Shown here: piece by piece, positions 6,718-63,451 of the stretch
Layout of the letters: each line of letters begins with the position of its first letter
Position numbering within the stretch: the stretch's first letter is position 1
Source: a candidate division FCPU426 bacterium
GTDB taxonomy: Bacteria > Oederibacteriota > PGYV01 > Palsa-1178
Direction: 5' to 3'
Length of the DNA stretch: 64,000 nt
Assembly: GCA_963840035.1 (NCBI GenBank)
Contig: CAWIXE010000002.1
Span: 781,685 to 845,684, forward strand
The notes under the pieces: generated by a model
The model's database searches: none
What the model saw: only the letters and a program-made list of their open reading frames with translations
Told to the model about the DNA's origin: nothing
Translations under genes and position numbers: made by a program

Positions 6718-6757
6718 AAGTACCCCTTTTTAACTGTAATATGCTATTTTAACACAA

Positions 6758-7888: not shown

Positions 7889-7945
7889 GTTGTCTCCTTG
7901 TACGTTAAGTAATAAGTTATAAACCGGAAGTGTTTTTTACGGTGC

Positions 7946-8017: not shown

Positions 8018-8060
8018 ATACACAAAAACGCGTCCCTTTCCGCCATTATATTTCATGCTT

Positions 8061-12903: not shown

Positions 12904-13685
12904 CTGCCTCCCCACACTTCCTCTGATGACGCGGTCCTCCCGCCTGAATTGGCGTGAAAAAATGCCTGTATGACTTCGCCGTTGTATGAAAGCACCTCTC
13001 CGGCTGTTTCATCTATGGCGCTGTTTGTCGGCGCGGCTTCGACGTCCCTGCCGCTATACACTTGAGAAGCGACTGAACAATCCAGGTCATATTCAGGGGT
13101 TTTATTCTTGAGCCTGTTATATATGGCAAAAGACCTTGCCGCTACCGCCTGCGCTTTTAAAACTTCCTTTTCCCAGCTGTAGGATACTTCCGAAGGAAGC
13201 ACACCGTAAAGGTATTGTTCAAGTTCCAGCTTGTTTACCAGCATTAATGTGCCGCTTTTTAGAAAAACCATGAAAGAACCGCGGTATGATTTTTTATTAA
13301 AGACGAGGTATCCGTCTTTACATGTAATTTCGAGTAATTTTTTACCGGTGTCGTCCCCGTTAATTGATATGAAGCCATCAGGCAGCGCGGTAATGACGAA
13401 CTTCTTCCCTTCAGCCACGGATGAATCGGCAATTGATGCCTGTCCGCTGGAGGAAACTCCAAGAGGGCCTGATGATTTGGCGAGAAGGACTTTAACCATT
13501 ATGACTTTTGAGTGTTCGTCCGGCTGCTCCGAAGCGTTATAGGTTTTGACTTCCTTGGATTTGAGTTCTTCTTTTGTTATTTTGACAGTTCTTCCTGTGC
13601 CCAGGTTTCTTGTAGACATGGAAACGCATGAAGTAAGCATGGCCAGAGCGCAGGCTGAAACAATCAGGATTGAAGGCCTGTTCAT
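12876..13685 (-). pseudogene. SpoIID/LytB-family protein, N-terminal fragment before frameshift
   Basis: Signal/lipobox N-terminus. YLYGVLPSEVSYSWEKEVLKAQAVAARSFA and FHANSGGRTASSEEVWGG are SpoIID motifs. The frame terminates 9 codons after WGG. Confidence 0.8.
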
Positions 13686-45430: not shown

Positions 45431-45655
45431 GTAAAAAGTCTCCTTTTTCACCAAACGAAATGCCAATTGTCCCAAAAGGGACATCGGGAAGAATATTTTA
45501 TAATAAAACAGGGTAAAAGACAATAGTTATATAGTATAAATGATTGGTTGGTGTTTTGTTTGAATTACTAATTACCAATTACTAATTAGTTCGGTTCTAA
45601 CATTTAACGCAACACTTTGATAGGATTATACTTTCAAAGGAGGCGTTAATAATCA

Positions 45656-46105
45656 ATGAAGAATCCGAACTACAAGAGGTTAAGTTTCGAAGAACGGGAA
45701 GAAATTAGCAGGTATTTAGCAAGTGGTCTAAAAGCTGGCCGAATAGCAATGTTGATAGGTAGAAATAGAAGCACCATAACGAGAGAAATAAGAAAGGGTT
45801 TTAAAACAAATACATATCGCGCGGTACAGGCGAATAATAGAGCCAAAAGAAACGCCAAAAGGCGAAGGTTCGGAAAACGTAAGATAGATAAGTGTAAAAG
45901 ATTAAAAAGGTTCATTGAAAAGCATCTCTGGTTAAAGTGGTCACCGGAACAGATTGCAGAAAAATTGAAAATAGAGTATCCTACGGACATGGACATGAGA
46001 ATATCACCCGAGAGTATTTATGCATATTTGTATGTGAAGCCCAAAAGCCACTTGAAAAGAGAAGCTGCTAAAGCAGTTTCGGCAAAAGCATTCCAGGCGG
46101 TTTAA
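45656..46105 (+). pseudogene. IS30-family transposase, N-terminal HTH part
   Basis: 149 aa. LSFEEREEISRYLASG...RNRSTITREIRK HTH. Confidence 0.8.
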
Positions 46106-46661
46106 AAGGAATGCCAGAATGACCGGAATTGCAAAGGATTTAGAAGATATAACAAGCATAGATGAACGGCCTGCGGAAGTTGAAACACGAGAGATTCCCG
46201 GACACTGGGAAGGCGACTTAATGATTGGCAGACTTCGGCAGTCAGCCATCGGAACGCTTGTTGAAAGAAAAACAAGGTATTTACGGATTGTCCGGTTAAA
46301 AAACAGGACGGCAAAAGAAGTCAAGAAACAATTTGAAGCTACGTTTAAGAAACACCCTAAACAACTTAGATTGAGCATGACATATGACCAAGGCAGAGAA
46401 ATGGCGGATCATAAAGCTCTAAGTAAGGCGTTAAATATTAAGATATATTTTGCGCACAAGAGAAGCCCGTGGGAACGTGGAACAAATGAAAACACAAATG
46501 GGTTAATACGGCAGTTTTTCCCTAAAGGCACAGACTTCAATAAGATAAGTTTAAAAGAACTCAGGTATGCAGAAAGACTGTTAAATCAAAGACCCAGAAA
46601 AACTTTGGGCTGGAAAACACCCGAAGAGGCGTTTTATCAAGATGTTGCGTTAAATACTTGA
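46050..46661 (+). pseudogene. IS30-family transposase, DDE catalytic part (+1 frame)
   Basis: The frame is open from ~46050 (KEKLLKQFRQKHSRRFKRN...). It contains IDERPAEVETREIPGHWEGDLMIG, MTYDQGREM and PWERGTNENTNGLIRQFFPKG. Confidence 0.8.
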
Positions 46662-46765
46662 AACCAAGTTACTAAATATAACGCTTCGCGTATATTATAA
46701 TAAGTGCAACAGCACACCTTAATCAGTAATTGGTAATTAGTAATTATTAATTTCGTTCTGAAAAA

Positions 46766-47254
46766 TTAATCCTCGTGATGCTGTCCGCGGGGGTTTGCGA
46801 TTTTTGTTTTTAACAGTTCGTATTTGGCGCTTTCATTTTTGACGATATTATCAAGCACGCCGTTGACAAAACTTCCGGATTTCTCATCCCCAAAGCGTTT
46901 TGCCAGCTCTATGGCTTCATTAATAGTGACTTTATAAGGAATGTCATTGCGGTAAAGCAGTTCGGCAACGCCTATCCTTAAGATATTCCTGTCAAGCGAC
47001 AGGATGCGGTCATATTTCCAGTTCTTAAGGTATTTGGGTATTATTTCATCAAGTTCCTTCAGGTTATCCGTGACAGTCTTGACCAGTTCCTTTGCAAATT
47101 CCTTTGACTTGTCGATGAATTTTTCCTCAGAGCCCAAATTCTGCATGGAATATGTGTCGATAAACTCCTCGATTTCCAGCGGAGTGCTTGCTGCGATCTC
47201 TACCTGATACAAACTCTGAAGAGCGATGATGCGTCCCGCACGTCTGATTCCCAT
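46766..47254 (-). CDS. nusB: transcription antitermination factor NusB
   Basis: 162 aa. [16 protein letters not shown] and the [18 protein letters not shown] signature. Downstream of ribH as is common. Confidence 0.92.
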
Positions 47255-47352
47255 TAATACCTCTCAATTTTAAATTTTCAATTTTGAATTTTAAATTAGA
47301 ATCAAAGACCTGTTCGGCATTTAATTGAAAATTTAAAATATAAAATTTAGAA

Positions 47353-47814
47353 TTAGATTTTATCTATTAGATCCGTCATTTCCAGCGTCGAAAGCGCCGA
47401 GTCAAAGCCTTTATTCCCGCTTTTTACCCCTGCCCTGTCTTTTGCCTGTTCTGCGGTGTCAGCGGTTATTATGCCAAAACCTATGGGGATGCCCGAGCTA
47501 ATGCTCAGAGAAGCGATGCCCTTTGTAACTTCCGAAGCGATGAAGTCAAAATGAGGCGTTTCCCCGCGGATGATGACGCCGAGAGCTATCATTCCGGTAT
47601 ATTTCTTCTTTTTAAGTATGTTTGAAAGCGCTGTGGGTATCTCGAAGGAACCCGGAGTCCAGTAAACATCGATGGAAGACTCAGCCACGCCATGCCTTAC
47701 CAGGCAGTCTATGGCGCCGTTAAGAAGATTTTTTCCTATGGCTTCATTGAACTTTGATATGACTATGCCGAATTTCTTGCCTTTGCCGATGTAAGAGCCT
47801 TTGATTTCCTTCAT
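47353..47814 (-). CDS. ribH: 6,7-dimethyl-8-ribityllumazine synthase
   Basis: 153 aa. FGIVISKFNE, VPGSFEIP-like TPGSFEIP, GVIIRGETPHFDF. Confidence 0.95.
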   Translation of the reverse strand: MKEIKGSYIGKGKKFGIVISKFNEAIGKNLLNGAIDCLVRHGVAESSIDVYWTPGSFEIPTALSNILKKKKYTGMIALGVIIRGETPHFDFIASEVTKGIASLSISSGIPIGFGIITADTAEQAKDRAGVKSGNKGFDSALSTLEMTDLIDKI

Positions 47815-47935: not shown

Positions 47936-48049
47936 TTATTTGATTATAACGATTTTTTTTACAACCTTATTTTTACCTGCAACAATCTCATAAAAATATG
48001 TGCCGTTTCCCGCCCATTTACCCGCGTCATTTCTTAAGTCCTGTCCTGC
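47936..48049 (-). pseudogene. orphan 37-codon C-terminal fragment of a FlgD-Ig / T9SS-CTD-like beta-sandwich tail
   Basis: Hand translation gives AGQDLRNDAGKWAGNGTYFYEIVAGKNKVVKKIVIIK*. It has no start codon and begins exactly at the left IR of the 2.75-kb mobile element. Confidence 0.6.
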
Positions 48050-48069
48050 CTGTCAATTATTGTCACTTT

Positions 48070-48927
48070 TTACCCCGCAAATTGGTTGACATTTTGTTCT
48101 CCGGATTTGATCAAACACAACCCCATATCTACAACTGATTTTACCACGGCCTTCCTCACAACGTCAAGTTTATCCAGTCCCGGTATTTTCTGTTTTTCAA
48201 TTTCCGCAATCGCATTTTCAGCTTTTTTAATTAGCTCATGCTTTTCTTCGTTTTTGTATATTTCTCCGTTTTTGAAAACTTCAGCGCTTGTTTTGCCGTC
48301 AAATATACGCCGCGGCATTTCGTGATTAATCTCATAAATCGCTCTTTCAAATTTGGCGTATACTTTTTCGTAATTTAACCCTCCTTTTTCAGTTTTCAGA
48401 TATTTCTCAAATATCTGATTTTCGCGCTCCAGTTTCCCGTTGAAAAGCGGATAATGCCCGGGGCTGGGCATCGTGAGAATCTCTTTTTCTTTCAAATAAC
48501 TTATTAATACTTCGTTCTGAAACTCAGAACCCCTGTCAGTTTTAACCACAAGCGGTTTTATTCCCTGCTCGTTCATCACGCGTTCAAGCAGGATTTTCGC
48601 CTTTTCACCGGTATTTGAATAACTCATAATCCAACCAAGCACACACCTTGAGTACTCCTCAAATACCAGCTGAACATACACATACCCTTCTTCGCAGCGT
48701 ATTTTAATCGTATCTAGCGCCCAGCTGACATGCTTTTTTAGCCATTCAACTGACTTGTACTCTTTCTTTCCCGCTTTTTGCTTTTTCCTGGGCCCAAAAT
48801 ACTCATAAACTATTTTTGCAACGCTGCTTGGCGATATACCCGCTTTTATTGCCAAAACATAATTAGTTGATATTTCCGAAAACCTCCGTTTTAATTCCAG
48901 CACCCGGAGTATTGTTTCACCAGACAA
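48070..48927 (-). CDS. IS3-family OrfB (rve/DDE integrase core); frame open upstream to the A9 site
   Basis: DDE residues in WALDT, KTDRGSEF, GKLERENQ. The same frame stays open back to 49119 in the -1 frame relative to orfA. Confidence 0.85.
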   Translation of the reverse strand: MSGETILRVLELKRRFSEISTNYVLAIKAGISPSSVAKIVYEYFGPRKKQKAGKKEYKSVEWLKKHVSWALDTIKIRCEEGYVYVQLVFEEYSRCVLGWIMSYSNTGEKAKILLERVMNEQGIKPLVVKTDRGSEFQNEVLISYLKEKEILTMPSPGHYPLFNGKLERENQIFEKYLKTEKGGLNYEKVYAKFERAIYEINHEMPRRIFDGKTSAEVFKNGEIYKNEEKHELIKKAENAIAEIEKQKIPGLDKLDVVRKAVVKSVVDMGLCLIKSGEQNVNQFAG

Positions 48928-50715: not shown

Positions 50716-50775
50716 ATATTTTACCTCCTCTTTCGTTGAATTTCCAGAGGTAAAATGTCAACCTATTTCAATGGG

Positions 50776-53700
50776 TTAGCAGTTATGATAATTGACGGCT
50801 AGGATAATGAAAAGCGCCAGGTCATAACTGCCGTTTGCCAGCGATGATATGTCCCACACAGCCAGTTTGCCGCCGCTGTTTATCTGCATGTTCTTTGCAG
50901 TGGTTGTCACGGCGCCTCCGGTGTATTCCTCTGGCAGTTCCAGATATGTGTATCCTTCATCAGGATTTCCGTTTTCATCCATAACCACATAGTCAGACGG
51001 CCTGTATCCGAGCATATATCCCCTGAAAGCCTCGCCGCCGGTGGCGATCCCGGTCACTGCAAGAGTATCACCGTCTGCCTCCGCGTTTAACACCATATCA
51101 TCAGAGGCGGCTTTTCCGCCTATCTGGTTTATCTGCGGCACTATCCTTCCTTTTACTATATAGCACGTGCCGGCGCATTCATTGCCGAAAACATCCTGAA
51201 CGCGTATTTCCGCCCTGTAAACGCCGTCAGGTACATATCCGTAACCGCTCCCCATATCGCCCATGCCGTCCCATGTGATGCCGTTAACCGGCGCTGAAAG
51301 CACACTGCGGTATTGTGAAGTATTCGCTGTATCCGTCAGGAAGTTATAAAAATAATATTTTTCTCCCCTGTACTCGTCTATGTCGCCGTATATGCCTGAG
51401 TAGCGCAGGGTTATGGCTTCCTTTTTTTCTATGCCGTCGTATAATTCCCTGACGACCTTTCTCTGCGACGGATTGCTTTCATTTGTGGTAATTCTTACAT
51501 CAGCGTATACATACTTTGAAGTGGCTGCCATGGGCGTAAAGTATATGGCTGTGCATGTCCTGCCCTTTGACTCCTCTTCAGGGTTGAAAATAAACGGAGA
51601 GGCATACGGAGGGTAGCGCAGTACAGGCGGTTTGTCTGCCGGAAGAAGATAGTACTTTCCTTTTGCCTGAGCCACCTTTGTCATGGCAGTATAAGCGCCG
51701 GCAGGCTTCTGCGTCCCGGCTATGAGCGCCCTTGCTGTGGTGGTGACGCACTGCGCGCCGCATGTATTGCTCTCTGTCTCGTTATATATACCCAGATTAT
51801 CAGCGATTATACTTTTTGCCTTTGCCTTTTCATCCGCGTACACATAATCAGCCGAACCTGATGACAATCCAAATATGGAATCAAGCCCGGGTATGTCAAG
51901 GTCTTCATCAGTGTATCTTATGGTTATCTGCAGAGGCTCCGCATTATCGTACAGCAGTGTTGTATCCAGCGCGGGATATATGCCGTACTTGGATGTTATG
52001 GCGCTGTACATATCCGACATAAGCGGCGGGCTGCAGGGTATGTTTTCAGAGTAGACATTTACGTACTGTGTATCCTTTACTTTCCACGCAGGAACAAAAA
52101 GCTCAAACTTTATGTACGGGTCTGTCACTATGGTGCCTGCCGTGTTTGATACGTCTATAGGCGTGCCTATGGTCAGCTGCGCCCTGTCAACTTCCGCGTC
52201 CGCGCAGTCAGAGACGTAGTCATATCCCATGTTCACGTCGCTTATGGTAGTGCGTATGGTGTACTTGCCGTAGAGCCTTTTTGACCACACGTCCCATGCG
52301 GTCATAACCTGAAATAACGGCCCTTCTTTCCTCTGATTTGAGGCTGTTATGCCGCCGTCAGTAGAAAAATATGTGCAGGAAGTATTTGCTTTATCTATCC
52401 AGCCGGGCGCGTATTCCATGCGCCACTCGCTTAGCTTTAGCGCGTCAGCGCCTCCCATGGCTGTGATAAATGACCTTCCGGTATATCTGCTTTTAAGCTT
52501 AAACCTAAACTGCCCGGAAGCGGGCACTTTATTGTCTGTGATTTCAGACCCGTTTATATCTGCCATGACAAGGTCAGGGTTTATAGTGTCGTCAGGATAG
52601 GTTACCCTCACGTCTTTTCCGCCGCATCCGGCCGCGGTTATGACATCGCTCATGGCGCTTTCCCCGAGCCGTGCTGAAAGGAAATTAATGATACCTCCGC
52701 CCTGAGCCGCGATACTCGCGCCTATCCCGAACAAGCCGTTATCATATGCCTTCCACTTGTATGATGTCATGGGCACAGCGCGCGAGCCGTCCTGCGGGAA
52801 GGATGTACCTGCAAGGTATGCTGTGAATTTCTTTTCCACTGTATACCCTCCGGCGTTCATGGTCCAGACATTTATGTTGTTTTTCCCGGCGTGCGGCAGG
52901 GGTATGTCCAGCGCCCAGTCAGCCTTGCCGCGCTTGCCGTCTGCCGTGGTCATCAGGGTGGTGTCTATTTTCAGGATTGTTGTTACCACCGGGCCGTTAT
53001 CAGCCTGCCCGTACACCTGTATGAACTGCGGGAAGTAATCAGAGGCCCACCCTTCCACATGCAGTATGGCCCTGTCAGTGCTTACCCCGCGTATAGCACC
53101 ATCATAACTCTCCAGCGGCTTTTCCGCCTGCGGCCTGTAGGGATAAAAGACCCCTATTTCACCCGGCTCATCTATATCCTTCATAATCTGCTCGGGGTTC
53201 ATCTGCTGACCCTTACCGTAGCTTAAGGAACTCAGCATTTCATTTAGCAGTTCACCGAGGAACGGTATGAAATCAAGCTTTATGGGTATGGGCAGTTCCA
53301 GCTTCGGGAAATCAGGAAGTTTTAGTTCCTTCATTATTGCCGTGCCTTTTTTCGACACCTCATCACGCATGTTTTTTATAACCGGATTGTCGCTTCCAAG
53401 CTGATTTTGCACTGTATTCAAGAGATTTCCGGGTTTTGTATTAAATATTGAAACTATTATTGGCCCTATGTTTGTAATGCCGCTTGTTATTGGCTCAGGT
53501 ACATAGTGTAACATTTTCAATAAATCACCTATCAGACCCATCATTTCTTCATCCAGTGTCACAGGAGCCTTATCAGAACCGCCGCTTGCCTTTATGGTAA
53601 GTCTTTTTAGTTTTGAAAGGTTCGCGGATACAGCGGATAAATTCCTGTTACTGAATGTATCAAGCCATTTCCCGCCTTTTTGTATATCACTCTTTGTGCC

Positions 53701-55641
53701 GTCATACTTTTCTATATAGTCTGCCACCTTTGTAGCCATGTCCCATATCTCTTTTTCCCAGTCTATGTCTTTTAAATCAGGTATAGAACTTGATTCACAA
53801 CCGCCCAGTATGGACTTGGTTACAGTCTCAGAGCTTATCATGCTCTCTAACTGACTTGCTGTTATTTTATTTCCGCCAAACCCGGGAAAATTATTTCCAC
53901 CCGGTATTTTATCTGTCAGTTTATCAAGCTCTGATGCACCTGCTTCCATGGCTTTACTTACTGCCCCATCTACTGCTTTAAAAGCATAGGCTTTTATGGT
54001 TCCCTCTGCCCATGTCTTGCCGTATCCGATGGCCCCCTGTAAAAGGTACTGAGCAAATCCCGGATTAGAAGTCATCTGCAATCCGCCAAGCAGAGCCATG
54101 CCTATGCTTACCTTATTTGCTATTTTCTGGAATTCCATAACCCTGTCTATGGCTTCCTGATCTATCCCGCCCGCGCCGAGAAATGCGCCCGCGATGGCCA
54201 CGCTTGCCAGGTCATCTGCCATTTGCATGTTATTTGTATTTCCCATGCCGTTGGGGTCTGTTAAGTAATTTAATACAGCGTTTCCGGACATACCGTCTGC
54301 TATTATCTTTGAGTTTGCGGGCGTATCTTCTGCATTGCCTTTTGGCATTATCATGTTCATAGCCCCGTCTAAGCCGGTGTCTATGGTATCACACGCGTTA
54401 AATTTTATATTATCAAGACCTTTGCTCATGTCGAGCTTGACGAAAAGAAGCTGGGGCGGTTTTACCCCCCTGAAATTCAGGCTTAAGTTAAACATCCCGG
54501 ATAACTGCTTCCATACATCCGGCCCCTGAAGCTTATCAGGAAACCAGGCTATCTTCCACTTGGATAAATCCAGCCCCCATTTAAGTCCGCGTAAATCAGG
54601 CCGTGGTATTGCTTTTAATATCCCGGACAAATCAGGAACCTGCATACCAGGTATCCTGAATAACTTCCACAAATCAATCCCCGATAACTGCGGTAATATG
54701 CACAAATCCTGCCCCTGGTCATTTTTTAATCCAAGGTCACTTATAAAAGAAGCTAGCGTTGCCCCTGAAGCTATTTTCCCCGCCACAAAATCCGCGCTTT
54801 GCATGTTCACGCTTTTTAATCTTAACTTGTCACTTTCAGACATACAGGACAAATTGAGGTTGGGTAGCAGGTCTTTAATCGCTGCAAGAAGATCAAAACT
54901 GCCGAAGTTGATGTTAAGTTTGCTTAAAAGATCTTTCCAGTTTATTTTTAAGTCAGGAGCCTGGAAATCAAGGTTAAAAGAACTTGAGACCGAAGTCCCG
55001 GTTAAGGGTTTTACGATACCTGTGTAATCCTGTCCTATTTTTTCAGGGTCAGCATCCGCGGATTTTATCATTGAAAATATATTAGTTTCATCCGAGCCAA
55101 GAACGCTGTGCTCATACCCTTCCGCTTCATATAATCCATTATCTTTAAGTACAGGTGATTCTACAACTTGATCATTGAATGCCGCGTTATATTTGTCACT
55201 TACCTGCACGGCCAAAACAATCGGGATAGACTCATTATTTTTAACGTTCGAGAGCAAAGAATCATATTCGGCTTTAGATATTTTTCCTTGGATTATTTCG
55301 GGGTATTCAGGATTATTTTTTATTACATCGTATTTTATTATAGGTACTTCGTTTGCTTTTGGAAACTTTTTGTTCTTTAACGTTATTAATTTAGCGCTTA
55401 ACTCTTCAGTAAAATACAATCTTACGTCTAGGACGTTTTTATTGTCAGCACCTTTTGGCGGCTTTGATGCTTTTACACTTCTCAAAAAAAGATTGTTTTC
55501 AAATTTTACATTACCCCATTCAATCTGATAAACCGGATTACACCCCTGCATTATTTCAACCCGTTTTAGATAAACAGGACGCCACTTATAAAACTTTTCC
55601 AAGATGTCCTCTTCAGACCAATTTTGGTCGCTTAGATACAT
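50776..55641 (-). CDS. giant exported protein, distal 1621-codon segment (end of SpoIID-like module, long unknown region, FlgD-Ig-like domain); 3' end truncated by the mobile element
   Basis: Begins MYLSDQNWSEEDILEKFY, which completes the SpoIID-type GMSxWGA..(M).......IL..(F/Y)Y motif of the upstream ORF. FlgD-Ig-like ASPFIFNP...ITWDGMGDMGSGYGYVPDGVYRAEIRVQD. The last 7 codons (AVNYHNC) are IR-derived. Confidence 0.8.
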   Translation of the reverse strand: MYLSDQNWSEEDILEKFYKWRPVYLKRVEIMQGCNPVYQIEWGNVKFENNLFLRSVKASKPPKGADNKNVLDVRLYFTEELSAKLITLKNKKFPKANEVPIIKYDVIKNNPEYPEIIQGKISKAEYDSLLSNVKNNESIPIVLAVQVSDKYNAAFNDQVVESPVLKDNGLYEAEGYEHSVLGSDETNIFSMIKSADADPEKIGQDYTGIVKPLTGTSVSSSFNLDFQAPDLKINWKDLLSKLNINFGSFDLLAAIKDLLPNLNLSCMSESDKLRLKSVNMQSADFVAGKIASGATLASFISDLGLKNDQGQDLCILPQLSGIDLWKLFRIPGMQVPDLSGILKAIPRPDLRGLKWGLDLSKWKIAWFPDKLQGPDVWKQLSGMFNLSLNFRGVKPPQLLFVKLDMSKGLDNIKFNACDTIDTGLDGAMNMIMPKGNAEDTPANSKIIADGMSGNAVLNYLTDPNGMGNTNNMQMADDLASVAIAGAFLGAGGIDQEAIDRVMEFQKIANKVSIGMALLGGLQMTSNPGFAQYLLQGAIGYGKTWAEGTIKAYAFKAVDGAVSKAMEAGASELDKLTDKIPGGNNFPGFGGNKITASQLESMISSETVTKSILGGCESSSIPDLKDIDWEKEIWDMATKVADYIEKYDGTKSDIQKGGKWLDTFSNRNLSAVSANLSKLKRLTIKASGGSDKAPVTLDEEMMGLIGDLLKMLHYVPEPITSGITNIGPIIVSIFNTKPGNLLNTVQNQLGSDNPVIKNMRDEVSKKGTAIMKELKLPDFPKLELPIPIKLDFIPFLGELLNEMLSSLSYGKGQQMNPEQIMKDIDEPGEIGVFYPYRPQAEKPLESYDGAIRGVSTDRAILHVEGWASDYFPQFIQVYGQADNGPVVTTILKIDTTLMTTADGKRGKADWALDIPLPHAGKNNINVWTMNAGGYTVEKKFTAYLAGTSFPQDGSRAVPMTSYKWKAYDNGLFGIGASIAAQGGGIINFLSARLGESAMSDVITAAGCGGKDVRVTYPDDTINPDLVMADINGSEITDNKVPASGQFRFKLKSRYTGRSFITAMGGADALKLSEWRMEYAPGWIDKANTSCTYFSTDGGITASNQRKEGPLFQVMTAWDVWSKRLYGKYTIRTTISDVNMGYDYVSDCADAEVDRAQLTIGTPIDVSNTAGTIVTDPYIKFELFVPAWKVKDTQYVNVYSENIPCSPPLMSDMYSAITSKYGIYPALDTTLLYDNAEPLQITIRYTDEDLDIPGLDSIFGLSSGSADYVYADEKAKAKSIIADNLGIYNETESNTCGAQCVTTTARALIAGTQKPAGAYTAMTKVAQAKGKYYLLPADKPPVLRYPPYASPFIFNPEEESKGRTCTAIYFTPMAATSKYVYADVRITTNESNPSQRKVVRELYDGIEKKEAITLRYSGIYGDIDEYRGEKYYFYNFLTDTANTSQYRSVLSAPVNGITWDGMGDMGSGYGYVPDGVYRAEIRVQDVFGNECAGTCYIVKGRIVPQINQIGGKAASDDMVLNAEADGDTLAVTGIATGGEAFRGYMLGYRPSDYVVMDENGNPDEGYTYLELPEEYTGGAVTTTAKNMQINSGGKLAVWDISSLANGSYDLALFIILAVNYHNC

Positions 55642-57976
55642 AGCCCCCCCATGCGCTCATACCGCATTTGGAACCATTTAATAAGTCCGGCGGAACAGCT
55701 ACGTCTGCTTCATCGACAATATTTTCATGCAGATATGATTGAGCTTGTTTTATGACATTTTGTGAGCTTTGAATTATAGTATTTTTTGCGTTTTTCCCGG
55801 TTGAGTATCCAAATACGTTAGTTAATAAATACGGAATTACCACTTTGTCATAGACACGCGTTCTTTTGAAATCATCTTTACTCATCAGTATTTTATTGAA
55901 CCAAAAAGCCTTAACGTAGTATCTGATGTTTCCGTCCTGACTGATGGGCTTTGCTATATCATTTATGGCAAGGTTTATTAAATCCTTTGTTTTACTGCTG
56001 CCATAAAATGTTTTATAAGGGATATAGTATTTCTGGCTGTCAGTATAACCATTTACTTTTATGTCCACATCAGAATTATTGTATGATTCATGTAATAATA
56101 AAGTGTAAGCCGCAACAGCAAGCGCTTTAAAGCCATTTAAATATTTCGTGTCAGAAAAATCAGCATCACCAACCAGCCCATATAGTACGCCTTTTAAGTA
56201 ATCTCTGATATCAACATTCAGTATTTCAGGAGACGGAGTCGGTATAGGCACGCCAGTCTGAACAACCGTCGGAGTAATTGTTCCTGTTTCAATACTTGTA
56301 GCCGATGAACATGGTGTTAATAACACGATTTCCGTCGATTCTTCCGTAGGTATTTGATGCAGATCTTTAATAATGACTTTGTTCAGATAAAATACTGTTG
56401 CTGTCGGTGTTGGCACAGTCGGGGTTGTAGTGCCGGACGGAGTTGCAGTGATTTTGCCTGAATATAAAACGAATTCTTTTGGCACTATAACAATTCTATG
56501 ATTAGTATCCGCCCCGCCAAGATTAGTTTCATCTTGATCCTCCTCTGACATTTTGCTCTCATAACTCAGCCATTTTCCGTCAGAAGTTCTTTTTGCAACA
56601 GTCTCTGGATCCCGGTCAAGTTTATCCTGCATAAGACTATGTGCTTCTACAAATAAAAAATATTTGTCACTATATTTCCTCGCTTCTTCATCTGACAACT
56701 CACAACTCCCGGTCCATTTAGTATATACCGTGCCACCGGCATCAACCTCCATCGGGTCGAACCAGCCATCAACAGAATCCGGTTTAAATTCGACAGTAAA
56801 TTTACTATCCTTAGCATTTTTTTTAAGACCAACTGATATTTTCTCTTTTCGCCATTGGCCGTAGTATTTTACAGTCATTGCCTTGCTAAAAAACAGTGTA
56901 ATTCTGATTTTTCCCGAACCAATATTTCCTGTTTTAGTAATGCTCATAGGACCGCGGGCGGTTTCTATTCCGTTCGAGTCTTTCGTTACAGGCCATTCAG
57001 CAGCATACACAGTCTTCCAGTCTGCAGGGGTTTTGTCAACTTTATTAAAATCTTCAAATGTTATCTGTTCTAATTTCACTTTTTTCAAATATGGCGGGGA
57101 CATACGTCGTGGTTTGTAATTTTCACCGCCATCCGATCTTTCTATATTGCATGATTCATAGTTTGCATTTGTTTTTAGTGTATACGCGCAATTAAAGACC
57201 CTCGGCATATTTCCAGACAAATACTGATTATCAGAAGCATCTATCGTGTTTAAGGTATTTGCACTTGGTGGCTCAATCGCAATCGCAACATGATTTTTAT
57301 TAGCTAACGGCCTTATTATTAAGTCTCCGGGTCCTATTTCATTCCACATTAAGGGATCAGAAAAAATATCATTCGCAAGATGTCCTACCCCCGGATGCCA
57401 TGCAATTCCGTTGGTCTTTACTATCAATGGAATTCCATAACAATTTGCAACAAGTCCTGAACAATCAATCCCGGTATAATCATACATTTCATATTCGCCA
57501 TTAATCGGCGGACGATAATTTGGATAAGGAGGATTATTTACAAGGTTCGAATCGTAAATTACGTTATATCCTCCCGCAAGACATTGCGGCCTTCTATTTG
57601 GAGTTAGGTTTGATAACAATTTTCCGCCAGTCAGTTGTCTTCCGCCATCGCCCATGATTTCAAGCGAATCGCGCAAACCATAGCCATATGGGACGCCTGT
57701 ATATAAATATCCTGCAGGAACTACATTGCCGGAATTATCAACCGCACCGACACCGTCGGGGAAGAATGGAAAAGGTGTAGCATTATTTCTATCACTTCCA
57801 TCTACATTGGAAATGTCAGCATGCAATGTATTTGTAAACACCCTGGCGTTTGTTATGGAACACTTCCATTTATGATCACGGTAGCTTTTTGCCACTTCAA
57901 CGACGTCATTCCCGTCTTTGGCAATTAATTCGCTACAAAACACACAAATCAGAAAAAAACTTAATAACTTTCTCAA
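55613..57976 (-). CDS. giant exported protein, proximal 787-codon segment (signal peptide, NlpC/P60-like peptidase, Thr/Pro linkers, SpoIID-like module)
   Basis: MRKLLSFFLICVFCSELIA signal. GIDCSGLV...PGDLII...NHVAIAI...IDAS (NlpC/P60 Cys-His pattern). YLKGVLYGLVG...FKALAVAAYTLLL...CGMSAWGG (SpoIID-like). Confidence 0.8.
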   Translation of the reverse strand: MRKLLSFFLICVFCSELIAKDGNDVVEVAKSYRDHKWKCSITNARVFTNTLHADISNVDGSDRNNATPFPFFPDGVGAVDNSGNVVPAGYLYTGVPYGYGLRDSLEIMGDGGRQLTGGKLLSNLTPNRRPQCLAGGYNVIYDSNLVNNPPYPNYRPPINGEYEMYDYTGIDCSGLVANCYGIPLIVKTNGIAWHPGVGHLANDIFSDPLMWNEIGPGDLIIRPLANKNHVAIAIEPPSANTLNTIDASDNQYLSGNMPRVFNCAYTLKTNANYESCNIERSDGGENYKPRRMSPPYLKKVKLEQITFEDFNKVDKTPADWKTVYAAEWPVTKDSNGIETARGPMSITKTGNIGSGKIRITLFFSKAMTVKYYGQWRKEKISVGLKKNAKDSKFTVEFKPDSVDGWFDPMEVDAGGTVYTKWTGSCELSDEEARKYSDKYFLFVEAHSLMQDKLDRDPETVAKRTSDGKWLSYESKMSEEDQDETNLGGADTNHRIVIVPKEFVLYSGKITATPSGTTTPTVPTPTATVFYLNKVIIKDLHQIPTEESTEIVLLTPCSSATSIETGTITPTVVQTGVPIPTPSPEILNVDIRDYLKGVLYGLVGDADFSDTKYLNGFKALAVAAYTLLLHESYNNSDVDIKVNGYTDSQKYYIPYKTFYGSSKTKDLINLAINDIAKPISQDGNIRYYVKAFWFNKILMSKDDFKRTRVYDKVVIPYLLTNVFGYSTGKNAKNTIIQSSQNVIKQAQSYLHENIVDEADVAVPPDLLNGSKCGMSAWGGYVSKRPKLV

Positions 57977-57990
57977 AAAAACACCTCGGT

Positions 57991-59187
57991 TTATTTATTT
58001 ACTTTGGATAATTTTATAATTCTTAATTTTGCCATACAGTCTTCACTTAAAGGCTTCCAGCATACGCTTTGCACCAAAAAAATTGTTCCATTATCATCAA
58101 TAGTACCGTTTTCATTATATTCTTCTGGAAAAATACCACATGGTCCTACCCAGTCCTTGCCCTTTCGAAACAACTCTGTTTTAATTTTTGAAATTAATCT
58201 GCCATCATTATTGACGACAAAAATACCGCTTAAATCTTTGTCATTGCCAGTATATATATATACGTATATATTCCCGTTTTTGTCATACAGAGCACTATTA
58301 TTGAGTGTTTGACACTGCACAAATTCAAAAATATCTTTTATTGATTCTATGTTAACTCGATAATTATTCTTGTTTTTTCCATAGGCGTTTATCGACGCCG
58401 TGTGTTTTGCCAGACCATTATTTTCTTCTTTTTGAAAAGCTGTTTTACTAATTGTCCTTGAATATCCTAAATCCACAAATCCTTTTTTCATTTGTTTCGC
58501 TAGTTCGTCATTTTCAATCTTTAAATCAACAACCCTGCTGACTAAACCAGCATCGTTTAGCACTTCTACAGTCCTATTAACAGAGTCATACAAATATATC
58601 GACCCGTTCTCAGCGACATGTAACGAGCCTTTATTTATCATGGGTTTCATATTATCTGTTACTTTGTTCTTTTTTAGTTTATAAGGATTGCTTATAAATA
58701 TTTGTTTCAAAAAATTTCCATTTAAATCAAACTTCTGGATTCTCGCATTGCCCTGATCAAGTATGTATATAAACTTGTTCGTAATTTCTACAGCAACTGC
58801 GCTATATATCAAAAAAGTACCCGGTGGGGTTCTGTTATTGCTTGTGTACTCATAAATATCATCATTATTTTTATCGTCCGACCCCATTATTGTCTTACCT
58901 TTATAATGTATTCTGTAACCAGCATCTTTTCCAACAAAAGGCGCGTCCATTATCACCTTGTAATCATACTGCACAGGCAGTTTTGTGTCGTCTATCTCCG
59001 ATAAATTGAGATTTACTGTTATTATCTCGCCATCCGAAGCTGTTCCTGTCAAACTATCGCCAGATGATACCAGTGTTGAGGTTACTGAAACGGCAGTAAT
59101 CTCAGACCCCACAGCTGCCATCCTCCCCTGCGCCATAACAACCGCGCAAAGAAGCGAAATTATACAAATAAAAATGATTTTTTTCAT
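57991..59187 (-). CDS. secreted NHL-repeat-like beta-propeller protein
   Basis: 398 aa. Signal peptide. NHL-like units FIYILDQGNARIQKFDLNGNFLKQI, GSIYLYDSVNRTVEVLNDAGLV, GNIYVYIYTG. Confidence 0.6.
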   Translation of the reverse strand: MKKIIFICIISLLCAVVMAQGRMAAVGSEITAVSVTSTLVSSGDSLTGTASDGEIITVNLNLSEIDDTKLPVQYDYKVIMDAPFVGKDAGYRIHYKGKTIMGSDDKNNDDIYEYTSNNRTPPGTFLIYSAVAVEITNKFIYILDQGNARIQKFDLNGNFLKQIFISNPYKLKKNKVTDNMKPMINKGSLHVAENGSIYLYDSVNRTVEVLNDAGLVSRVVDLKIENDELAKQMKKGFVDLGYSRTISKTAFQKEENNGLAKHTASINAYGKNKNNYRVNIESIKDIFEFVQCQTLNNSALYDKNGNIYVYIYTGNDKDLSGIFVVNNDGRLISKIKTELFRKGKDWVGPCGIFPEEYNENGTIDDNGTIFLVQSVCWKPLSEDCMAKLRIIKLSKVNK

Positions 59188-59204
59188 GTTTCCTCCAGTT
59201 TTAT

Positions 59205-60356
59205 TTACGGTATATATTTTAAAATTTTGCCTTTATTGCTCTGTCTGTACGCAACATATGGCGTTCCGCTATAAACTGCAAGCGAAACAAATTCAGAATA
59301 ATTTGTAATACTACTGTCTGCAAGTTTCGTCCATATAGATTGCGCGTTGTCATATCTGTATAGTATTATTTGATAACTTTTTGCATTTGTCATTCCAAAA
59401 GCCACGTAAGGTATATCATTGTATACATCAATACTAGCTTCGCTAACGTCAGATGATACGTCATTCCCAATTGTGTTCCAAGAACTATTTCCGGTATTAT
59501 ATTTAAATAAATTAGGCACTCCGACATCATCCGTTGCAAAAAATAATGTTCCATTATTTGACGACTTTATGGTTTGAAACAGAAACGATTCTGAAAAACC
59601 ATTTGTTCCAATTGGATTCCAAGCATTCCCGAGGTTATCAAAAGAAACCACCGAACATAAACCATCTGAATTGTTAGAATAAGAAACATAAGGTATATTG
59701 TTATATATATCAATCGCCGTATTAAAAACAGCCCCAGAAGTAATTCCCGGGCTATATAGCGCAGTAAAACTATTTCCTGAAGAATCAAATCTCATGACTG
59801 TTAGTTTATTTGAATTTGCGGCATCCTTGTAGGCGATAAATGGCGTGACACCATCTACAGCAAAGGAATTCTGTTCTGCAACCCCCGCCGAAAATCCGTA
59901 CTTCCCCATTACAGTCCAAGTATTCCCAACACTGTCATACTTCATAACCGTCGCTTTTGAAGAGTTTGCAACGTCACTGAAAGCCACGTACGGTACTCCG
60001 GATGTGTCTAAATCCATGCACACATAATCTGCCTCACCGGGTGATACCGCCTCGGCTCCCACCTGTGTCCACGCGCTTGCGCCGCTCACGAGCTTTTTTA
60101 CCACGGCTTTCTTTGACTGCCCTTCATCTTTATATGCCACATACAGCGTCCCGGCAGAGTCTGCTTTTAAGGTCACATACTTAACATCCGTATCACAGAA
60201 CACCCCTCCGGCCACAGTCTCCCAGTGTACCGGCGTAGGTGAAGGATCCGCCGGAGGCGCTGCCGGGTTATTGTTCTTTTTCCCGCATCCAGGCATAAGA
60301 GCAACCGCGATAAATACAACCAGTAAAACTATTATAACCTTGTTATTTTTTTTCAT
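59205..60356 (-). CDS. lipoprotein with seven ~48-aa repeats (predicted beta-propeller)
   Basis: Lipobox LMPGC, Pro-rich linker, then seven copies of the [GN]xP[YF][VI][AS][YF]..D..N..K.TVMK[YF]D......W..[VI]G..GFS pattern. Confidence 0.65.
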   Translation of the reverse strand: MKKNNKVIIVLLVVFIAVALMPGCGKKNNNPAAPPADPSPTPVHWETVAGGVFCDTDVKYVTLKADSAGTLYVAYKDEGQSKKAVVKKLVSGASAWTQVGAEAVSPGEADYVCMDLDTSGVPYVAFSDVANSSKATVMKYDSVGNTWTVMGKYGFSAGVAEQNSFAVDGVTPFIAYKDAANSNKLTVMRFDSSGNSFTALYSPGITSGAVFNTAIDIYNNIPYVSYSNNSDGLCSVVSFDNLGNAWNPIGTNGFSESFLFQTIKSSNNGTLFFATDDVGVPNLFKYNTGNSSWNTIGNDVSSDVSEASIDVYNDIPYVAFGMTNAKSYQIILYRYDNAQSIWTKLADSSITNYSEFVSLAVYSGTPYVAYRQSNKGKILKYIP

Positions 60357-60366
60357 TTTCCCCTCT

Positions 60367-61485
60367 TTATTTTGTTTTCTTAACCTGCATCCATTTAAAC
60401 TCCACAGGCGTATTTATTTCGTGGTTATTTATTTTTGTTATTATGCGGCTTTTTTCATTTCCCATACCGGACTCAACTTCCGTCTCTTCCGGCAGTTCGA
60501 TTTCCTTTTCGCCCTGTATTGTTTTGAGATATTCCTGATCCCCTTGGGCTGTGAGCTTTGGGCTCTGTTTTCTTATTTTAGACCGCTTTTTCCCCTTCAC
60601 CCTCATATGCCCTATCTTCTCCCCTGCAAGGTTATACATCTCCTGCTCTTCCACCATACCTGTCTTCATGTTTATCTTTTCCACACGTTTTGCTATCATG
60701 CCGCGGATGGCTTTGTCTTTGCTTTTATTAAACCATGCCACAGACTGCTCTTTAAGGGTTTCTCCGGCTTTATTTTTAGCCTTTGAGCTTCTTACTTTTT
60801 CTATGGCCTTATCCCATTCATCATTCATCTTGCCTGTTTTTTTGTCCGTGTACTCCACTTCCGCAAAGTCATCTTTATCTTTCAGAAACCCCAGTAACCC
60901 ACTGCCGCCTTTTTTCCTGCCCTTTACTTTAACGTCGAGTTCATCGGTTTCTATGTGGTTAGTATCAAAGCGTGAGGCATACCCCGCGTCAGTAAAACTC
61001 TTCTTACCGAAAGATGTCCCTGCAAGCGCCGCATACACGCTTCCGCCTTTTCCGTATCCATTGAGCCCGCCGATACCCGCTATCTTCTGCACCTCAGCCT
61101 GTACATCCGCATCCGCGGTGACCCGCACATGCGAGCCGTCTGCCATGAGATAAGTAACGGACATATCGGAAGTATCCACCAGAAACTGCATGGTAAAAAT
61201 TCCATTTGTTGTGACCATCACCTTATTATTCCCGGCGTTGTCAGATTGCATGACGTAGTCATAAGATAAAGCCTGGCTCTTGCCGCCATATTCCGTCAAA
61301 GACTCCACACCCGCTGACAAACTCCGCACATCACCGCTGTTTTGTGACTGCGCATCTATGACATCCGCCACAGTGTATTCGCCTTCGGCGTATGTGTTGG
61401 AGGATAACACGAATGTAAATACAAAAACAAATAATGCAACAGATAATGAAATATTTAAACGCTTTGATAAGTGTTTGACAGTCAT
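60367..61485 (-). CDS. hypothetical secreted protein with Lys-rich C-terminal half; first gene of the operon
   Basis: 372 aa. Signal peptide ...SSNTYAEGE. No family confidently recognised (possibly a LolA-like fold in the N-terminal half). Confidence 0.5.
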   Translation of the reverse strand: MTVKHLSKRLNISLSVALFVFVFTFVLSSNTYAEGEYTVADVIDAQSQNSGDVRSLSAGVESLTEYGGKSQALSYDYVMQSDNAGNNKVMVTTNGIFTMQFLVDTSDMSVTYLMADGSHVRVTADADVQAEVQKIAGIGGLNGYGKGGSVYAALAGTSFGKKSFTDAGYASRFDTNHIETDELDVKVKGRKKGGSGLLGFLKDKDDFAEVEYTDKKTGKMNDEWDKAIEKVRSSKAKNKAGETLKEQSVAWFNKSKDKAIRGMIAKRVEKINMKTGMVEEQEMYNLAGEKIGHMRVKGKKRSKIRKQSPKLTAQGDQEYLKTIQGEKEIELPEETEVESGMGNEKSRIITKINNHEINTPVEFKWMQVKKTK

Positions 61486-61530
61486 TTTTACCCCACCCTT
61501 TTGTGTGTCTTATTGGTTTTACCGCAGATA

Positions 61531-61559
61531 ATTATATGATTTCAAGCAAGTTGCGTCAA
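61531..61559 (-). promoter_or_regulatory. consensus sigma70 promoter of the five-gene exported-protein operon
   Basis: Minus strand reads TTGACG - 17 nt - TATAAT, ~45 nt upstream of ATG 61485, which has an AAGGGTGGGG SD. Confidence 0.65.
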
Positions 61560-61668: not shown

Positions 61669-63321
61669 TTAAAATCCGAGGAAATCATAAGTAATTATTC
61701 CTCCCGATATGTTAAAGACGTTCTTAAACCCGTTCTGCATGAGTATCCTCGCCGCGATATATCCGCGTATGCCAACCCTGCAGAATATGCCTATATTGGC
61801 CTCTTTGGGTATCTTATCGAGGTTTTCCCTTAGCGAGTCCACGTGGATGTTTACCGCGCCTTCTACCGAGCCTTTTGAGAATTCCATAGGCGAGCGCACG
61901 TCAAGCAGGAAGCAGTTCCCTTTTTTGCATGCCAGGAATTCTTCCCATGATACATTTTTGACTGTCCCGTGCATGGCGTTGTCAGCCACAAAGCCGGCCA
62001 TGTTAACCGGATCTTTGGCCGACGAGTACGGCGGCGCGTAGGCGTGCTCGAATTCTTCCAGGTCAGCCATGGTGCCATCCTTTGAAATATAGGCGGATAT
62101 GACGTCAATGAGTTTTTCCACCGACTCATAACCCGCGCACTGGGCGCCTAATATCCTTCCTGTGTCGGGCGCGTAAAGCACTTTAAGCGTCAGCATGGTT
62201 GAGCCTGGATAGTAGCCGGCGTGGCTGCCGGGGTGTATCAGGGACACGGCGTATGCCATGGAGGCATTCTTCAGCTGTTTTTCATTGGCGCCGGTGCAGG
62301 CCGCTGTAATGTCGAATATCTTTGCCACGGCAGTGCCTATGGTGCCTTTGTATTTATGCTGATTGCCGTTTAACATGTTAAAGGCGGCAATCCTTCCCTG
62401 TTTGTTGGCGGGCCCTGCCAGAGGTACGACATTGTATTTTTTTAGAATGGGATTATAAGTTTCGACAGCGTCGCCGACCGCGTATATGTCAGGGTCGGAT
62501 GTCTGCATGAATTCATTTACGGAAATGGACTTTTTTGATCCGAGTTTAAGGCCGCAATTCTCGGCAAGTGAACTCTCAGGCACAACCCCTATGGAGAGTA
62601 TCGCCATGTCAGCTTCAATTGACTCATCTGAATCCAGGTTGACTTTCAGCGAGTGTTTCGCTTTTTCAAAAGATACTACTTTTGAGCCCACCTTAAGATC
62701 CACACCTTTTGTAAAAAGAACCTCTTTGATAATGCCGGCCATGTCCGGGTCAAAAAGGTTCAGTACCTGTTTTGTGGATTCTATCAGGGTTACTTTCATC
62801 CCGTGTTTATGCAGGTTCTCGGCCATTTCCAGGCCTATGAAACCGGCGCCGATGACGACCGCGCTGATGGGCTTTGATTTACTTATGAAACTCATAATCC
62901 TGTCAGTGTCCTCAATGCTGCGAAGGGTGAAAATGCCGGGGGTGTTTATGCCCGGAAGTTCCGGAACCATGGGGTGCGCGCCCGGCGAAAGCAGGAGTTT
63001 GTCGTATTTTTCATCGTATTGCTTACCGGATTTCACGTCCATGACTTTAACGGTTTTTGTTTCCCTGTTTATGGATAAGACTTCATGCCCTGTCCTTACA
63101 TCGACATTAAATCTGTTTTTAAATGATTCAGGTGTCTGGAGGAAAAGCGATTCGCGGGCCTTGATCTCGCCGCCTATGAAGTATGGCAGGCCGCAGTTGG
63201 CGAAAGATACGCAGCAGCCGCGTTCAAATACTATTATCTCTTCCTTTTCAGAAAGCCGCCTTAACCTGGCAGCCGTAGACATGCCGCCGGCAACTCCTCC
63301 AACAATAAGAAACCTCGCCAT
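61669..63321 (-). CDS. CoA-disulfide reductase / NADH oxidase family flavoprotein with C-terminal rhodanese domain
   Basis: 550 aa. FAD GxGxxG (IVGGVAGG), redox Cys SFANCGLPY, second Rossmann VIGAGFIGLE. Rhodanese active site FCRVGIRG. Confidence 0.9.
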   Translation of the reverse strand: MARFLIVGGVAGGMSTAARLRRLSEKEEIIVFERGCCVSFANCGLPYFIGGEIKARESLFLQTPESFKNRFNVDVRTGHEVLSINRETKTVKVMDVKSGKQYDEKYDKLLLSPGAHPMVPELPGINTPGIFTLRSIEDTDRIMSFISKSKPISAVVIGAGFIGLEMAENLHKHGMKVTLIESTKQVLNLFDPDMAGIIKEVLFTKGVDLKVGSKVVSFEKAKHSLKVNLDSDESIEADMAILSIGVVPESSLAENCGLKLGSKKSISVNEFMQTSDPDIYAVGDAVETYNPILKKYNVVPLAGPANKQGRIAAFNMLNGNQHKYKGTIGTAVAKIFDITAACTGANEKQLKNASMAYAVSLIHPGSHAGYYPGSTMLTLKVLYAPDTGRILGAQCAGYESVEKLIDVISAYISKDGTMADLEEFEHAYAPPYSSAKDPVNMAGFVADNAMHGTVKNVSWEEFLACKKGNCFLLDVRSPMEFSKGSVEGAVNIHVDSLRENLDKIPKEANIGIFCRVGIRGYIAARILMQNGFKNVFNISGGIITYDFLGF

Positions 63322-63348
63322 TAGTGCCCCCTGAATTTTAAATTTTAG

Positions 63349-63431
63349 ATTTTATATTTTAGATTTAATGTGCGCTTATGCGCGTATTATTATAATAAAG
63401 TGCGAAGCACATTAAATCTAAAATATAAAAT
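63349..63431. repeat. long AT-rich hairpin with perfect 25-bp arms
   Basis: ATTTTATATTTTAGATTTAATGTGC ...33 nt... GCACATTAAATCTAAAATATAAAAT. Downstream of the SemiSWEET gene. Confidence 0.85.
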
Positions 63432-63451
63432 TGAAAATATAAAATTAAGTC

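Follow-up and report, generated by a model that had tools for sequence, protein, structure and literature searches.

The window analysed here, a 64-kb stretch of DNA from a candidate division FCPU426 bacterium (contig CAWIXE010000002.1), contains between 47.9 and 61.6 kb a minus-strand locus of genes for exported proteins. Very probably this locus is a decayed copy of a conserved three-gene cassette, whose members we refer to as A, B and G, with G being a giant gene whose product is a type IX secretion (T9SS)-type cargo. The features of the locus, listed from right to left with protein lengths in amino acids (aa) and genes given as open reading frames (ORFs), are the following.

61531..61559, minus strand: predicted sigma-70-like promoter site, TTGACG-17-TATAAT, 46 nt upstream of gene A
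60367..61485, minus strand: gene A, 372 aa, exported, a predicted LolA-superfamily half-barrel with Lys-rich helical insertions
59205..60356, minus strand: lipoprotein gene, 383 aa, seven kelch-like repeats
57991..59187, minus strand: gene B (type B1), 398 aa, an exported NHL-repeat beta-propeller
55613..57976, minus strand: 5′ ORF of the giant gene, 787 aa, TTG start
55644..55650, no strand assigned: G7 run, which puts the frame +1 out from that of the family, where an in-frame G6 gives TGG GGG GCT (Trp-Gly-Ala)
50776..55641, minus strand: continuation ORF of the giant gene, 1,621 aa, of which the homologous part (50804..55641) is 1,612 codons
48044..50803, minus strand: IS481-family element, 2.76 kb, standing in place of ∼3,200 codons of the relatives
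47936..48043, minus strand: 3′ remnant of the giant gene, reading QDLRNDAGKWAGNGTYFYEIVAGKNKVVKKIVIIK and then a stop, the final strands of a sorting domain of the Por_Secre_tail/FlgD_ig type

An initial annotation, made from the sequence without database searches, had described this region as a tightly spaced run of genes for exported proteins behind a single promoter, and much of that layout holds up. The gaps between the first four ORFs are 10, 17 and 14 nt, in agreement with the 10–17 nt spacing described, and the predicted promoter is present at 61559–61531, matching the sigma-70-like consensus at 11 of 12 positions; this is the joint-best match in a scan of 47.8–63.5 kb, the other 11/12 site (at 47877) lying upstream of ribH. 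Direct reading likewise finds signal peptides in the 372-, 398- and 787-aa products, while the 383-aa product carries a lipobox (LMPGC) together with seven repeats of the PY(V/I)A(F/Y) type; the predicted export of these proteins and the seven-repeat lipoprotein stand as described. The housekeeping flanks are also as described, with a CoA-disulfide-reductase-like gene at 61669–63321 and ribH-nusB at 47814–46766, but the suggestion that the locus is accessory cargo bordered by insertion sequence (IS) elements is wrong: the IS is one-sided, and the IS481-type element lies within the giant gene.

What had been taken for a protein of at least 2,400 aa is encoded in the window by two overlapping ORFs split at the G7 run. 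The 787- and 1,621-aa ORFs are in different frames, overlap by 29 nt and meet at this run (55650–55644), with the 787-aa ORF stopping 9 codons past the frameshift. Removal of one G yields a single frame of 2,399 aa, which reads CGMSAWGAMYLS at the junction, and the repaired frame reads CGMSAWGAMYLSDQNWSEEDILEKFY across the G-run. The motif at the junction is in frame in all 20 of the scanned related loci that carry it, with a G6 that keeps the frame standing at these codons in one of them (L007), and in six related genomic loci the ORF is uninterrupted at the frameshift point. By this comparison the extra G reads as a frameshift that splits the giant gene. The assembly of run ERR11594406 in Logan is 100% identical to the window from 63364 to 50780, with the G7 included.

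The far end of the giant gene is interrupted as well. Homology to all of the relatives ends at 50803, where the terminal repeat of the IS481-type element starts; the last 9 codons and the stop of the 1,621-aa ORF are IS sequence, and the Logan contig ends at 50780, within the terminal repeat. The element has 52-bp imperfect terminal inverted repeats (48044–48095 and 50752–50804) and two transposase-like ORFs with rve domains, of 524 aa (50715–49141) and 285 aa (48927–48070), and the match to NF033577 (transpos_IS481) scores 218.7 bits relative to a cut-off of 224. No target-site duplication was found at the element, and the sequences on its two sides do not share a reading frame. The remnant on its far side aligns best to the extreme C-termini of two full-length relatives, at residues 5454–5484 of 5,485 in P0003 and 5271–5302 of 5,302 in P0015, with local alignment scores of 66 and 73 respectively, compared to 34 ± 4 (maximum 49) for shuffled sequences. 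Only the last ∼31 residues of the sorting domain are therefore left in the window, cut off from the ORF by the IS.

Because ∼3,200 residues lie between the positions in P0003 and P0015 that match the two break points, and because there is no target-site duplication and the join is out of frame, the simplest reading is that an IS-associated deletion of ∼9.6 kb has occurred. The FlgD-Ig-like sandwich that had been described in the giant protein is indeed there, but the IS cuts through the middle of the domain, and this is not a natural gene end. Since the frameshift is accompanied by the loss of ∼3,200 codons, an intact apparatus would not be makeable from the window copy. At most a secreted NlpC/P60 fragment of 787 aa could be made in this genome, unless the G-run slips back, and even after such a reversion the anchor and the ∼3,200 residues would still be gone.

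The organization of the undamaged gene can be seen in its relatives. The family is rare: when the 787-aa ORF is compared exhaustively by HMMER with 1.84 billion representative proteins, only 40 of them match, and a word-index search with a 1,000-aa slice of the repaired protein matches three proteins; relatives are present in three GTDB species genomes, labelled either as 'bacterium' or as 'uncultured Spirochaetia'. There are three full-length relatives, P0003 (5,485 aa), P0015 (5,302 aa) and a third of 5,316 aa in a Joint Genome Institute (JGI) metagenome. The intact order is a signal peptide, a head, a Pro/Thr linker, a SpoIID-like module, a core of ∼1,500 aa, immunoglobulin (Ig)-like/FlgD_ig domains, four CBM_3 domains (E 9e-31 in the full-length relatives) and a terminal FlgD_ig/Por_Secre_tail, a sorting domain of the kind (PF18962/TIGR04183-type) found on type-A T9SS cargo; in P0003 the Por_Secre_tail match is 40.9 bits against a cut-off of 27, together with FlgD_ig, and the giant of L011 carries PF18962. 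Within the window the 787-aa ORF contains the signal peptide, an NlpC/P60-like head, a beta-rich domain, the Pro/Thr linker and the greater part of the SpoIID-like module, and the continuation ORF contains the end of that module, an alpha-helical region, the beta-rich conserved core and Ig-like domains. The Sec signal peptide is, by reading, MRKLLSFFLICVFCSELIA/KD, with a hydropathy peak at residues 1–19, and no lipobox is seen in the giant protein by reading.

The ∼1,500-aa core is 49–57% identical between the relatives and the window, and up to position 50803 the window continuation is 49–52% identical to P0003, P0015 and the giants of L002 and L004. The core is helical for ∼480 residues and then beta-rich, and finds no Pfam family and no PDB sequence match, even by profile search. 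Membrane-spanning segments in the core were considered and rejected, there being only the signal peptide and weak hydropathy peaks of 1.3–1.4. The initial annotation could name no family for ∼1,300 aa of the giant protein, and the core matches none in Pfam, NCBIfam, PHROG and PADLOC; neither gene A nor gene B has a family in these four collections, and among all five ORF products the searches of PHROG, PADLOC and NCBIfam yield nothing except one weak NHL hit. The related claim that the locus fits no described module thus holds for A, B and the core, but not for the giant protein as a whole, which very probably belongs to a known T9SS-type export class because its intact relatives end in Por_Secre_tail/FlgD_ig, an outcome that the initial annotation had itself named as counting against its reading.

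One member of the family, P0011 (1,412 aa, on a 12.4-kb contig), bears the NCBI label of a Candidatus Aenigmatarchaeota metagenome-assembled genome (MAG); this archaeal label is probably a binning error, since the protein has a signal-peptide-type N-terminus and bacterial relatives. Five other proteins of 463–491 aa (P0005, P0008, P0009, P0014 and P0020) match only residues ∼13–473 of the giant, corresponding to the P60-type head and the next domain, and may be either stand-alone heads or truncated gene calls.

The head of the window protein has the DCSG ... H(V/I) arrangement of Cys and His, and neither Cys172 nor His229 varies among 11 relatives. The best PDB matches of the head profile are E. 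coli Spr/MepS (E 0.055–0.08), aligned on GIDCSG and HVGI, and weak matches to PF00877 occur in five of the 11 relatives (best E 0.0023). Other family members have a Peptidase_M23 head instead, as seen both by direct reading and with Pfam, and P0015 and P0011 have an additional canonical SpoIID-like domain with an S/A-E motif. The SpoIID-like module that is shared by the family matches this canonical domain of P0011 by hhalign with 88% probability (E 3e-6), and its profile finds no SpoIID match among PDB sequences. The peptidoglycan theme suggested initially is thus borne out across the relatives, whose heads are predicted to be NlpC/P60-like, M23 or canonical SpoIID-like.

Gene A has 24 homologues, none of them named and none with a Pfam domain. 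An AlphaFold model built from the alignment of these 24 homologues (pLDDT 77, pTM 0.69) predicts an open antiparallel beta-barrel with a helical plug, and a Foldseek comparison with the PDB places DUF1329 (4z48, E 4e-10) first and Porphyromonas gingivalis LolA3 (9tp6, E 7e-9) second, followed by LolA, LolB and RseB; the top 33 hits are all DUF1329, LolA, LolB, RseB or MucB, with target-normalised TM-scores of 0.5–0.6. The modelled gene A product is accordingly assigned a LolA fold. The LolA3 of Flavobacterium johnsoniae, which has no known function, has a Lys-rich tail (PMC11885536, PMC13103446), and a Lys-rich segment is also a feature of the gene A product. The similarity to the superfamily would extend to the open barrel with internal helix (Foldseek probability 1.0) and the Sec signal, but identity is only ∼10%, gene A has ∼100 residues of extra helical Lys-rich insertions, there is no match to Pfam LolA, LolB or DUF1329, and the genetic linkage of gene A is to a giant cargo that is not a lipoprotein, instead of to lolCDE/lolB.

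Gene B occurs in two types. B1 proteins (360–435 aa) are NHL-like, and the profile of the 398-aa product matches NHL propellers in the PDB, including Thin (6d69, E 2.7e-15), TRIM71 and TRIM2, in keeping with the propeller named initially; B2 proteins (285–323 aa) have weak DUF5711/PD40 matches. Homologues of B1 lie directly upstream of P60-type giants in L002, L006, L012, L017, L026 and L041. The 383-aa lipoprotein has only weak Kelch/beta-propeller matches in Pfam, and among ∼35 related loci its homologues are found only in L016 (arranged A-P2-P2, with 45% and 66% identity) and L014 (29%). By this distribution it is a lineage-specific insertion outside the conserved core, and the proposed five-gene unit reduces to a core of three.

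Related loci were collected by scanning genome contigs with the SpoIID-like module (a 4-sequence alignment) and by way of gene A (encoding and metagenome contigs). Gene A is present in every related locus that was mapped. The order A, B, giant on one strand recurs in ∼13 non-redundant metagenomic or MAG loci, wherever enough DNA follows A, with L014 as an exception in having a different middle gene. Co-occurrence in relatives, which had been put forward as a check on the locus, is therefore observed for A, B and the giant in the same order and on the same strand, and this is not a chance neighbourhood.

The two types of B are distributed according to the head of the giant that follows. B1 always precedes P60-type giants (in the window and in L002, L006, L012, L017 and L026) and B2 always precedes M23-type giants (in L004, L009, L011, L013, L021, L038 and L039), with no exceptions among 13 loci. 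A single MAG, USDV_metabat.159, contains at least three giant-gene loci, two of which have different heads on near-identical backbones: the giants of L002 and L004 are 95–99% identical over aa ∼1100–2600 and ∼3400–3900, and the A genes are 86% identical, whereas the heads share only 16–22% identity and the B genes are of different types and unrelated. From these alignments, it appears that a change of head goes hand in hand with a change of B on a common backbone, and that A is independent of the head. A block of ∼700 residues between aa ∼2700 and ∼3400, in the region that is deleted in the window, is just 20–30% identical between the two giants and may represent a second exchangeable module, for example for target recognition.

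Some of the related loci are themselves incomplete. In L027 (10963–12447) A and B1 are followed only by an 87-aa P60 fragment, despite ∼8 kb of further DNA, and in L026 (5700–5888) and L039 (3849–4115) a new A gene appears soon after a short giant-gene fragment. Such arrangements suggest that additional cassettes, either decayed or in tandem, exist in other genomes.

The overall picture that we favour, with some but by no means full confidence, is of a decayed cassette whose intact form encodes a T9SS-displayed protein that attacks peptidoglycan, together with a partner, specific for the head, that inhibits or chaperones it. Proteins destined for the T9SS pass through the periplasm once Sec has exported them, and since a folded wall hydrolase there would endanger its producer, an exported partner that is specific for the head is best explained as an inhibitor or immunity protein or as a chaperone. 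The roles of A and B, the orientation at the surface and the target of the head are ones that we infer. The G protein would cross the inner membrane by Sec, and in the periplasm B would bind the head, either as an inhibitor or immunity protein or as a dedicated chaperone, such that the cell's own sacculus is spared; A would escort the constant backbone, or else a lipid or hydrophobic partner. The T9SS would then export G, whose C-terminus likely provides for its display by anchoring it to the surface, leaving the head farthest out and the CBM3 modules close to the cell; the substrate of the head would be peptidoglycan, either in neighbouring cells or in wall debris. In the genome described here, the +1 slip in the G-run and the IS-associated loss of ∼3,200 codons would have inactivated G. 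That B is specifically an inhibitor or immunity protein has, in our estimation, slightly less than an even chance of being correct. It is a still more tentative proposal, and one we think rather unlikely, that A-B-G is a new device for contact-dependent antagonism or predation, namely a T9SS-displayed 'lance' of several hundred nanometres with an exchangeable peptidoglycan-cutting tip and periplasmic propeller immunity, diversifying by joint swapping of head and immunity gene and independent of type VI secretion (T6SS), contact-dependent inhibition (CDI) and type VII secretion (T7SS) systems.

The cassette, which comes from uncultured bacteria, is apparently undescribed, and we found no paper on this combination of domains, but it has features in common with several known systems, and can be likened to a hybrid of polymorphic toxin-immunity systems with the giant surface cargo of the T9SS. 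The gliding adhesin SprB is a giant T9SS cargo with a type-A C-terminal sorting domain. Another giant T9SS cargo of this class is the grappling-hook protein of Aureispira, which acts in ixotrophic predation (bioRxiv 10.1101/2024.01.29.577165). The cassette giant shares with both of these a Sec signal, an Ig-like chain of several thousand residues and, in the intact relatives, a C-terminal Por_Secre_tail; it differs in its swapped N-terminal peptidoglycan-hydrolase head, its SpoIID-like module and its CBM3 domains, as well as in the upstream LolA-fold and propeller partner genes, and has no sequence similarity to the grappling hook or SprB. Polymorphic toxin-immunity systems include CdiA, Rhs and the Tae-Tai amidase effector-immunity pairs of the T6SS. 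The TANFOR-domain toxins of the Bacteroidetes are a further example (PMC7073777). The cassette resembles these in having a conserved long backbone, an exchangeable enzymatic module, an adjacent small exported gene that co-varies with it and several copies in one genome, but its heads are, as judged from their sequences, wall hydrolases only, and it includes a third, constant LolA-fold gene.

Two other comparisons concern the hydrolytic modules. SpoIIP and SpoIID are engulfment hydrolases of sporulating Firmicutes, and the giant would similarly combine a stem-peptide-cutting enzyme with a SpoIID-type glycan module, although fused in one chain; it differs in that its module lacks the Glu at the S-E motif and in being a surface-type protein with T9SS-type sorting signals, and no sporulation genes were seen, although no search was aimed at them. 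The partner of E. coli MepS, an NlpC/P60 DD-endopeptidase, is NlpI, a TPR lipoprotein, and the MepS/Spr-NlpI pair shares with the cassette the predicted catalytic Cys and His that align with the head and the presence of a hydrolase with a dedicated protein partner; the cassette head is nevertheless ∼300 residues long with large insertions, and its partner is an NHL propeller.

A number of observations weigh against this picture. The NlpC/P60 and SpoIID calls of the initial annotation are upheld by motifs and by profile comparison, but are sub-threshold in Pfam, where the head scores 13.7–14.7 bits with NLPC_P60 (PF00877) and the window module 16.8 bits with SpoIID (PF08486), the cut-off being 23 in both cases. 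The Glu of the (V/L)xSE(M/V) motif is catalytic in SpoIID/LytB and is kept in the housekeeping SpoIID gene of the window (LPSEVS) and in P0011, yet is replaced in the shared module, by Leu in the window (GVLYGLVG) and by A, C or T in the relatives; the module may only bind glycan. The AlphaFold model of the core (1,191 residues, from a 5-row alignment) has a pLDDT of 33 and a pTM of 0.25, and ∼60% of the window's part of the giant protein is without a structural reading. A Pfam scan of the 38 larger ORFs of the window detects no T9SS machinery (PorK/L/M/N, Sov/SprA, PorU/V). The formal layout of polymorphic toxins is not seen either, since the variable module of the cassette is N-terminal and the partner is upstream, whereas the classical arrangement has a C-terminal toxin with its immunity gene downstream. 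The co-variation of head and B could also in part reflect two old cassette lineages, which the L002/L004 mosaic disfavours, albeit in one genome only. Finally, dnaE and the housekeeping SpoIID gene are also split within the 64-kb window, making it more likely that some of the frameshifts are assembly errors; the multiple splits reflect either a decaying genome or assembly indels, and weaken, without removing, the case that the G7 is real.

The two other split genes are both on the minus strand. The dnaE gene (DNA polymerase III alpha, 16658–20084) is present as two overlapping ORFs, one of 515 aa with the PHP and NTPase domains and one of 639 aa with the finger and HHH domains, with a switch of frame near AGCCGGGG at ∼18570. 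Such a split is unexpected in a normally essential gene; it could stem from an indel in the assembly, from recoding, or from true decay with another polymerase encoded elsewhere. The housekeeping SpoIID/LytB gene (12461–13685; PF08486, E 6e-26, with the LPSEVS motif) comprises ORFs of 269 and 183 aa, the latter carrying GVGMSQEGA...ILRYYY, with the change of frame near GGCAGAC at ∼12905, which is not a homopolymer.

Other explanations of the cassette differ mainly in what they take the giant protein to do. It could act on the wall of the cell that makes it, as an autolysin or spacer that trims its own peptidoglycan during cell separation or envelope tethering, with B as a regulator in the manner of NlpI for MepS or EnvC for the amidases; NlpC/P60, M23 and SpoIID are all families of housekeeping wall turnover, all of the components have Sec signals, and the locus sits amid housekeeping genes. 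We consider this improbable, in that a protein of 5,300 aa with CBM3 and a T9SS sorting domain seems built for the surface, beyond its own sacculus, the swapped heads on near-identical backbones in one MAG fit diversifying rather than housekeeping selection, the gene is dispensable enough to decay in this genome, and the same window has a separate housekeeping SpoIID, though that gene is also split. A giant adhesin or polysaccharide-binding fibre, in which CBM3 and Ig-like arrays tether the cell to plant or microbial polymers, the head is non-catalytic and A and B assist in folding or export, would account for the four CBM_3 and many Ig-like or FlgD_ig domains in the relatives and for the absence of the S-E Glu from the SpoIID-like module. 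We consider it similarly improbable, as the P60-type head keeps its Cys and His without change across 11 relatives, every alternative head is a peptidoglycan enzyme, and the strict matching of B to head is hard to explain for a passive binder.

A different kind of alternative is that the gene in the window is switched rather than dead, the G-run being phase-variable or a sequencing error, with the 2,399-aa exported protein still made in part of the population. A change from G6 to G7 is typical of slipped-strand events, L007 has the in-frame G6 at the same codons, and the frameshifts in two other window genes, including the normally essential dnaE, suggest assembly indels. We think this, too, is unlikely, because the same G7 is present in the separate k-mer assembly of ERR11594406, the dnaE and SpoIID frameshifts are outside long homopolymers, and even an in-frame product would be missing ∼3,200 residues and the sorting domain owing to the IS. 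Least credible of all, to the point that we give it scarcely any weight, is the idea that the locus is what remains of a prophage, or a module resembling a phage tail or tape measure. M23, lytic transglycosylase or NlpC/P60 domains are common in tape-measure proteins, and the giant is reminiscent of them in its size, its wall-hydrolase domains and a helical region in which hydrophobic stretches are rich in Gly, but none of the five ORF products has a PHROG match, no relative is found in 2.9 million viral contigs, and the Sec signal peptide, the T9SS sorting domain in relatives and the housekeeping neighbours in both the window and the related loci all point elsewhere.

If the mechanism of a T9SS-displayed, peptidoglycan-attacking protein with a head-specific partner is correct, then the repertoire of T9SS-type cargo would gain heads that degrade the wall and are exchanged jointly with a partner gene, and a first functional context would be provided for several unannotated families, namely the LolA3-like carrier, the two propeller types and the ∼1,500-aa core. 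The window copy also illustrates a route of decay through a homopolymer slip and an IS-linked deletion, and the '2,400-aa multi-domain protein' of this genome is best annotated as a pseudogene, a fragment of what in relatives is a 16-kb gene.

Several other features of the window are of interest. A second IS, which is IS30-like, lies between ftsH and nusB (45563–46752) with inverted repeats of 26–40 nt, and its transposase is split into an HTH_38 ORF (45656–46105) and an rve ORF (46119–46661). Upstream of the housekeeping SpoIID gene a run of repeat-protein genes extends from 6181 to 12380 on the minus strand, encoding a MORN-repeat protein (178 aa), a WD40 propeller (376 aa) and two paralogues of one type, the larger of which (1,092 aa) is a TPR protein whose core is transglutaminase-like and the smaller 346 aa long. 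Palindromic repeats that are AT-rich (AATTTTAAATTTTAGATTTTATATTTTAG-like, with 43-nt arms and 91% complementarity) are located at 63331–63449 and 47246–47354; both are intergenic, one after the CoA-disulfide-reductase-like gene and the other between ribH and nusB, and they may constitute a family of terminators or of elements similar to repetitive extragenic palindromic (REP) sequences.

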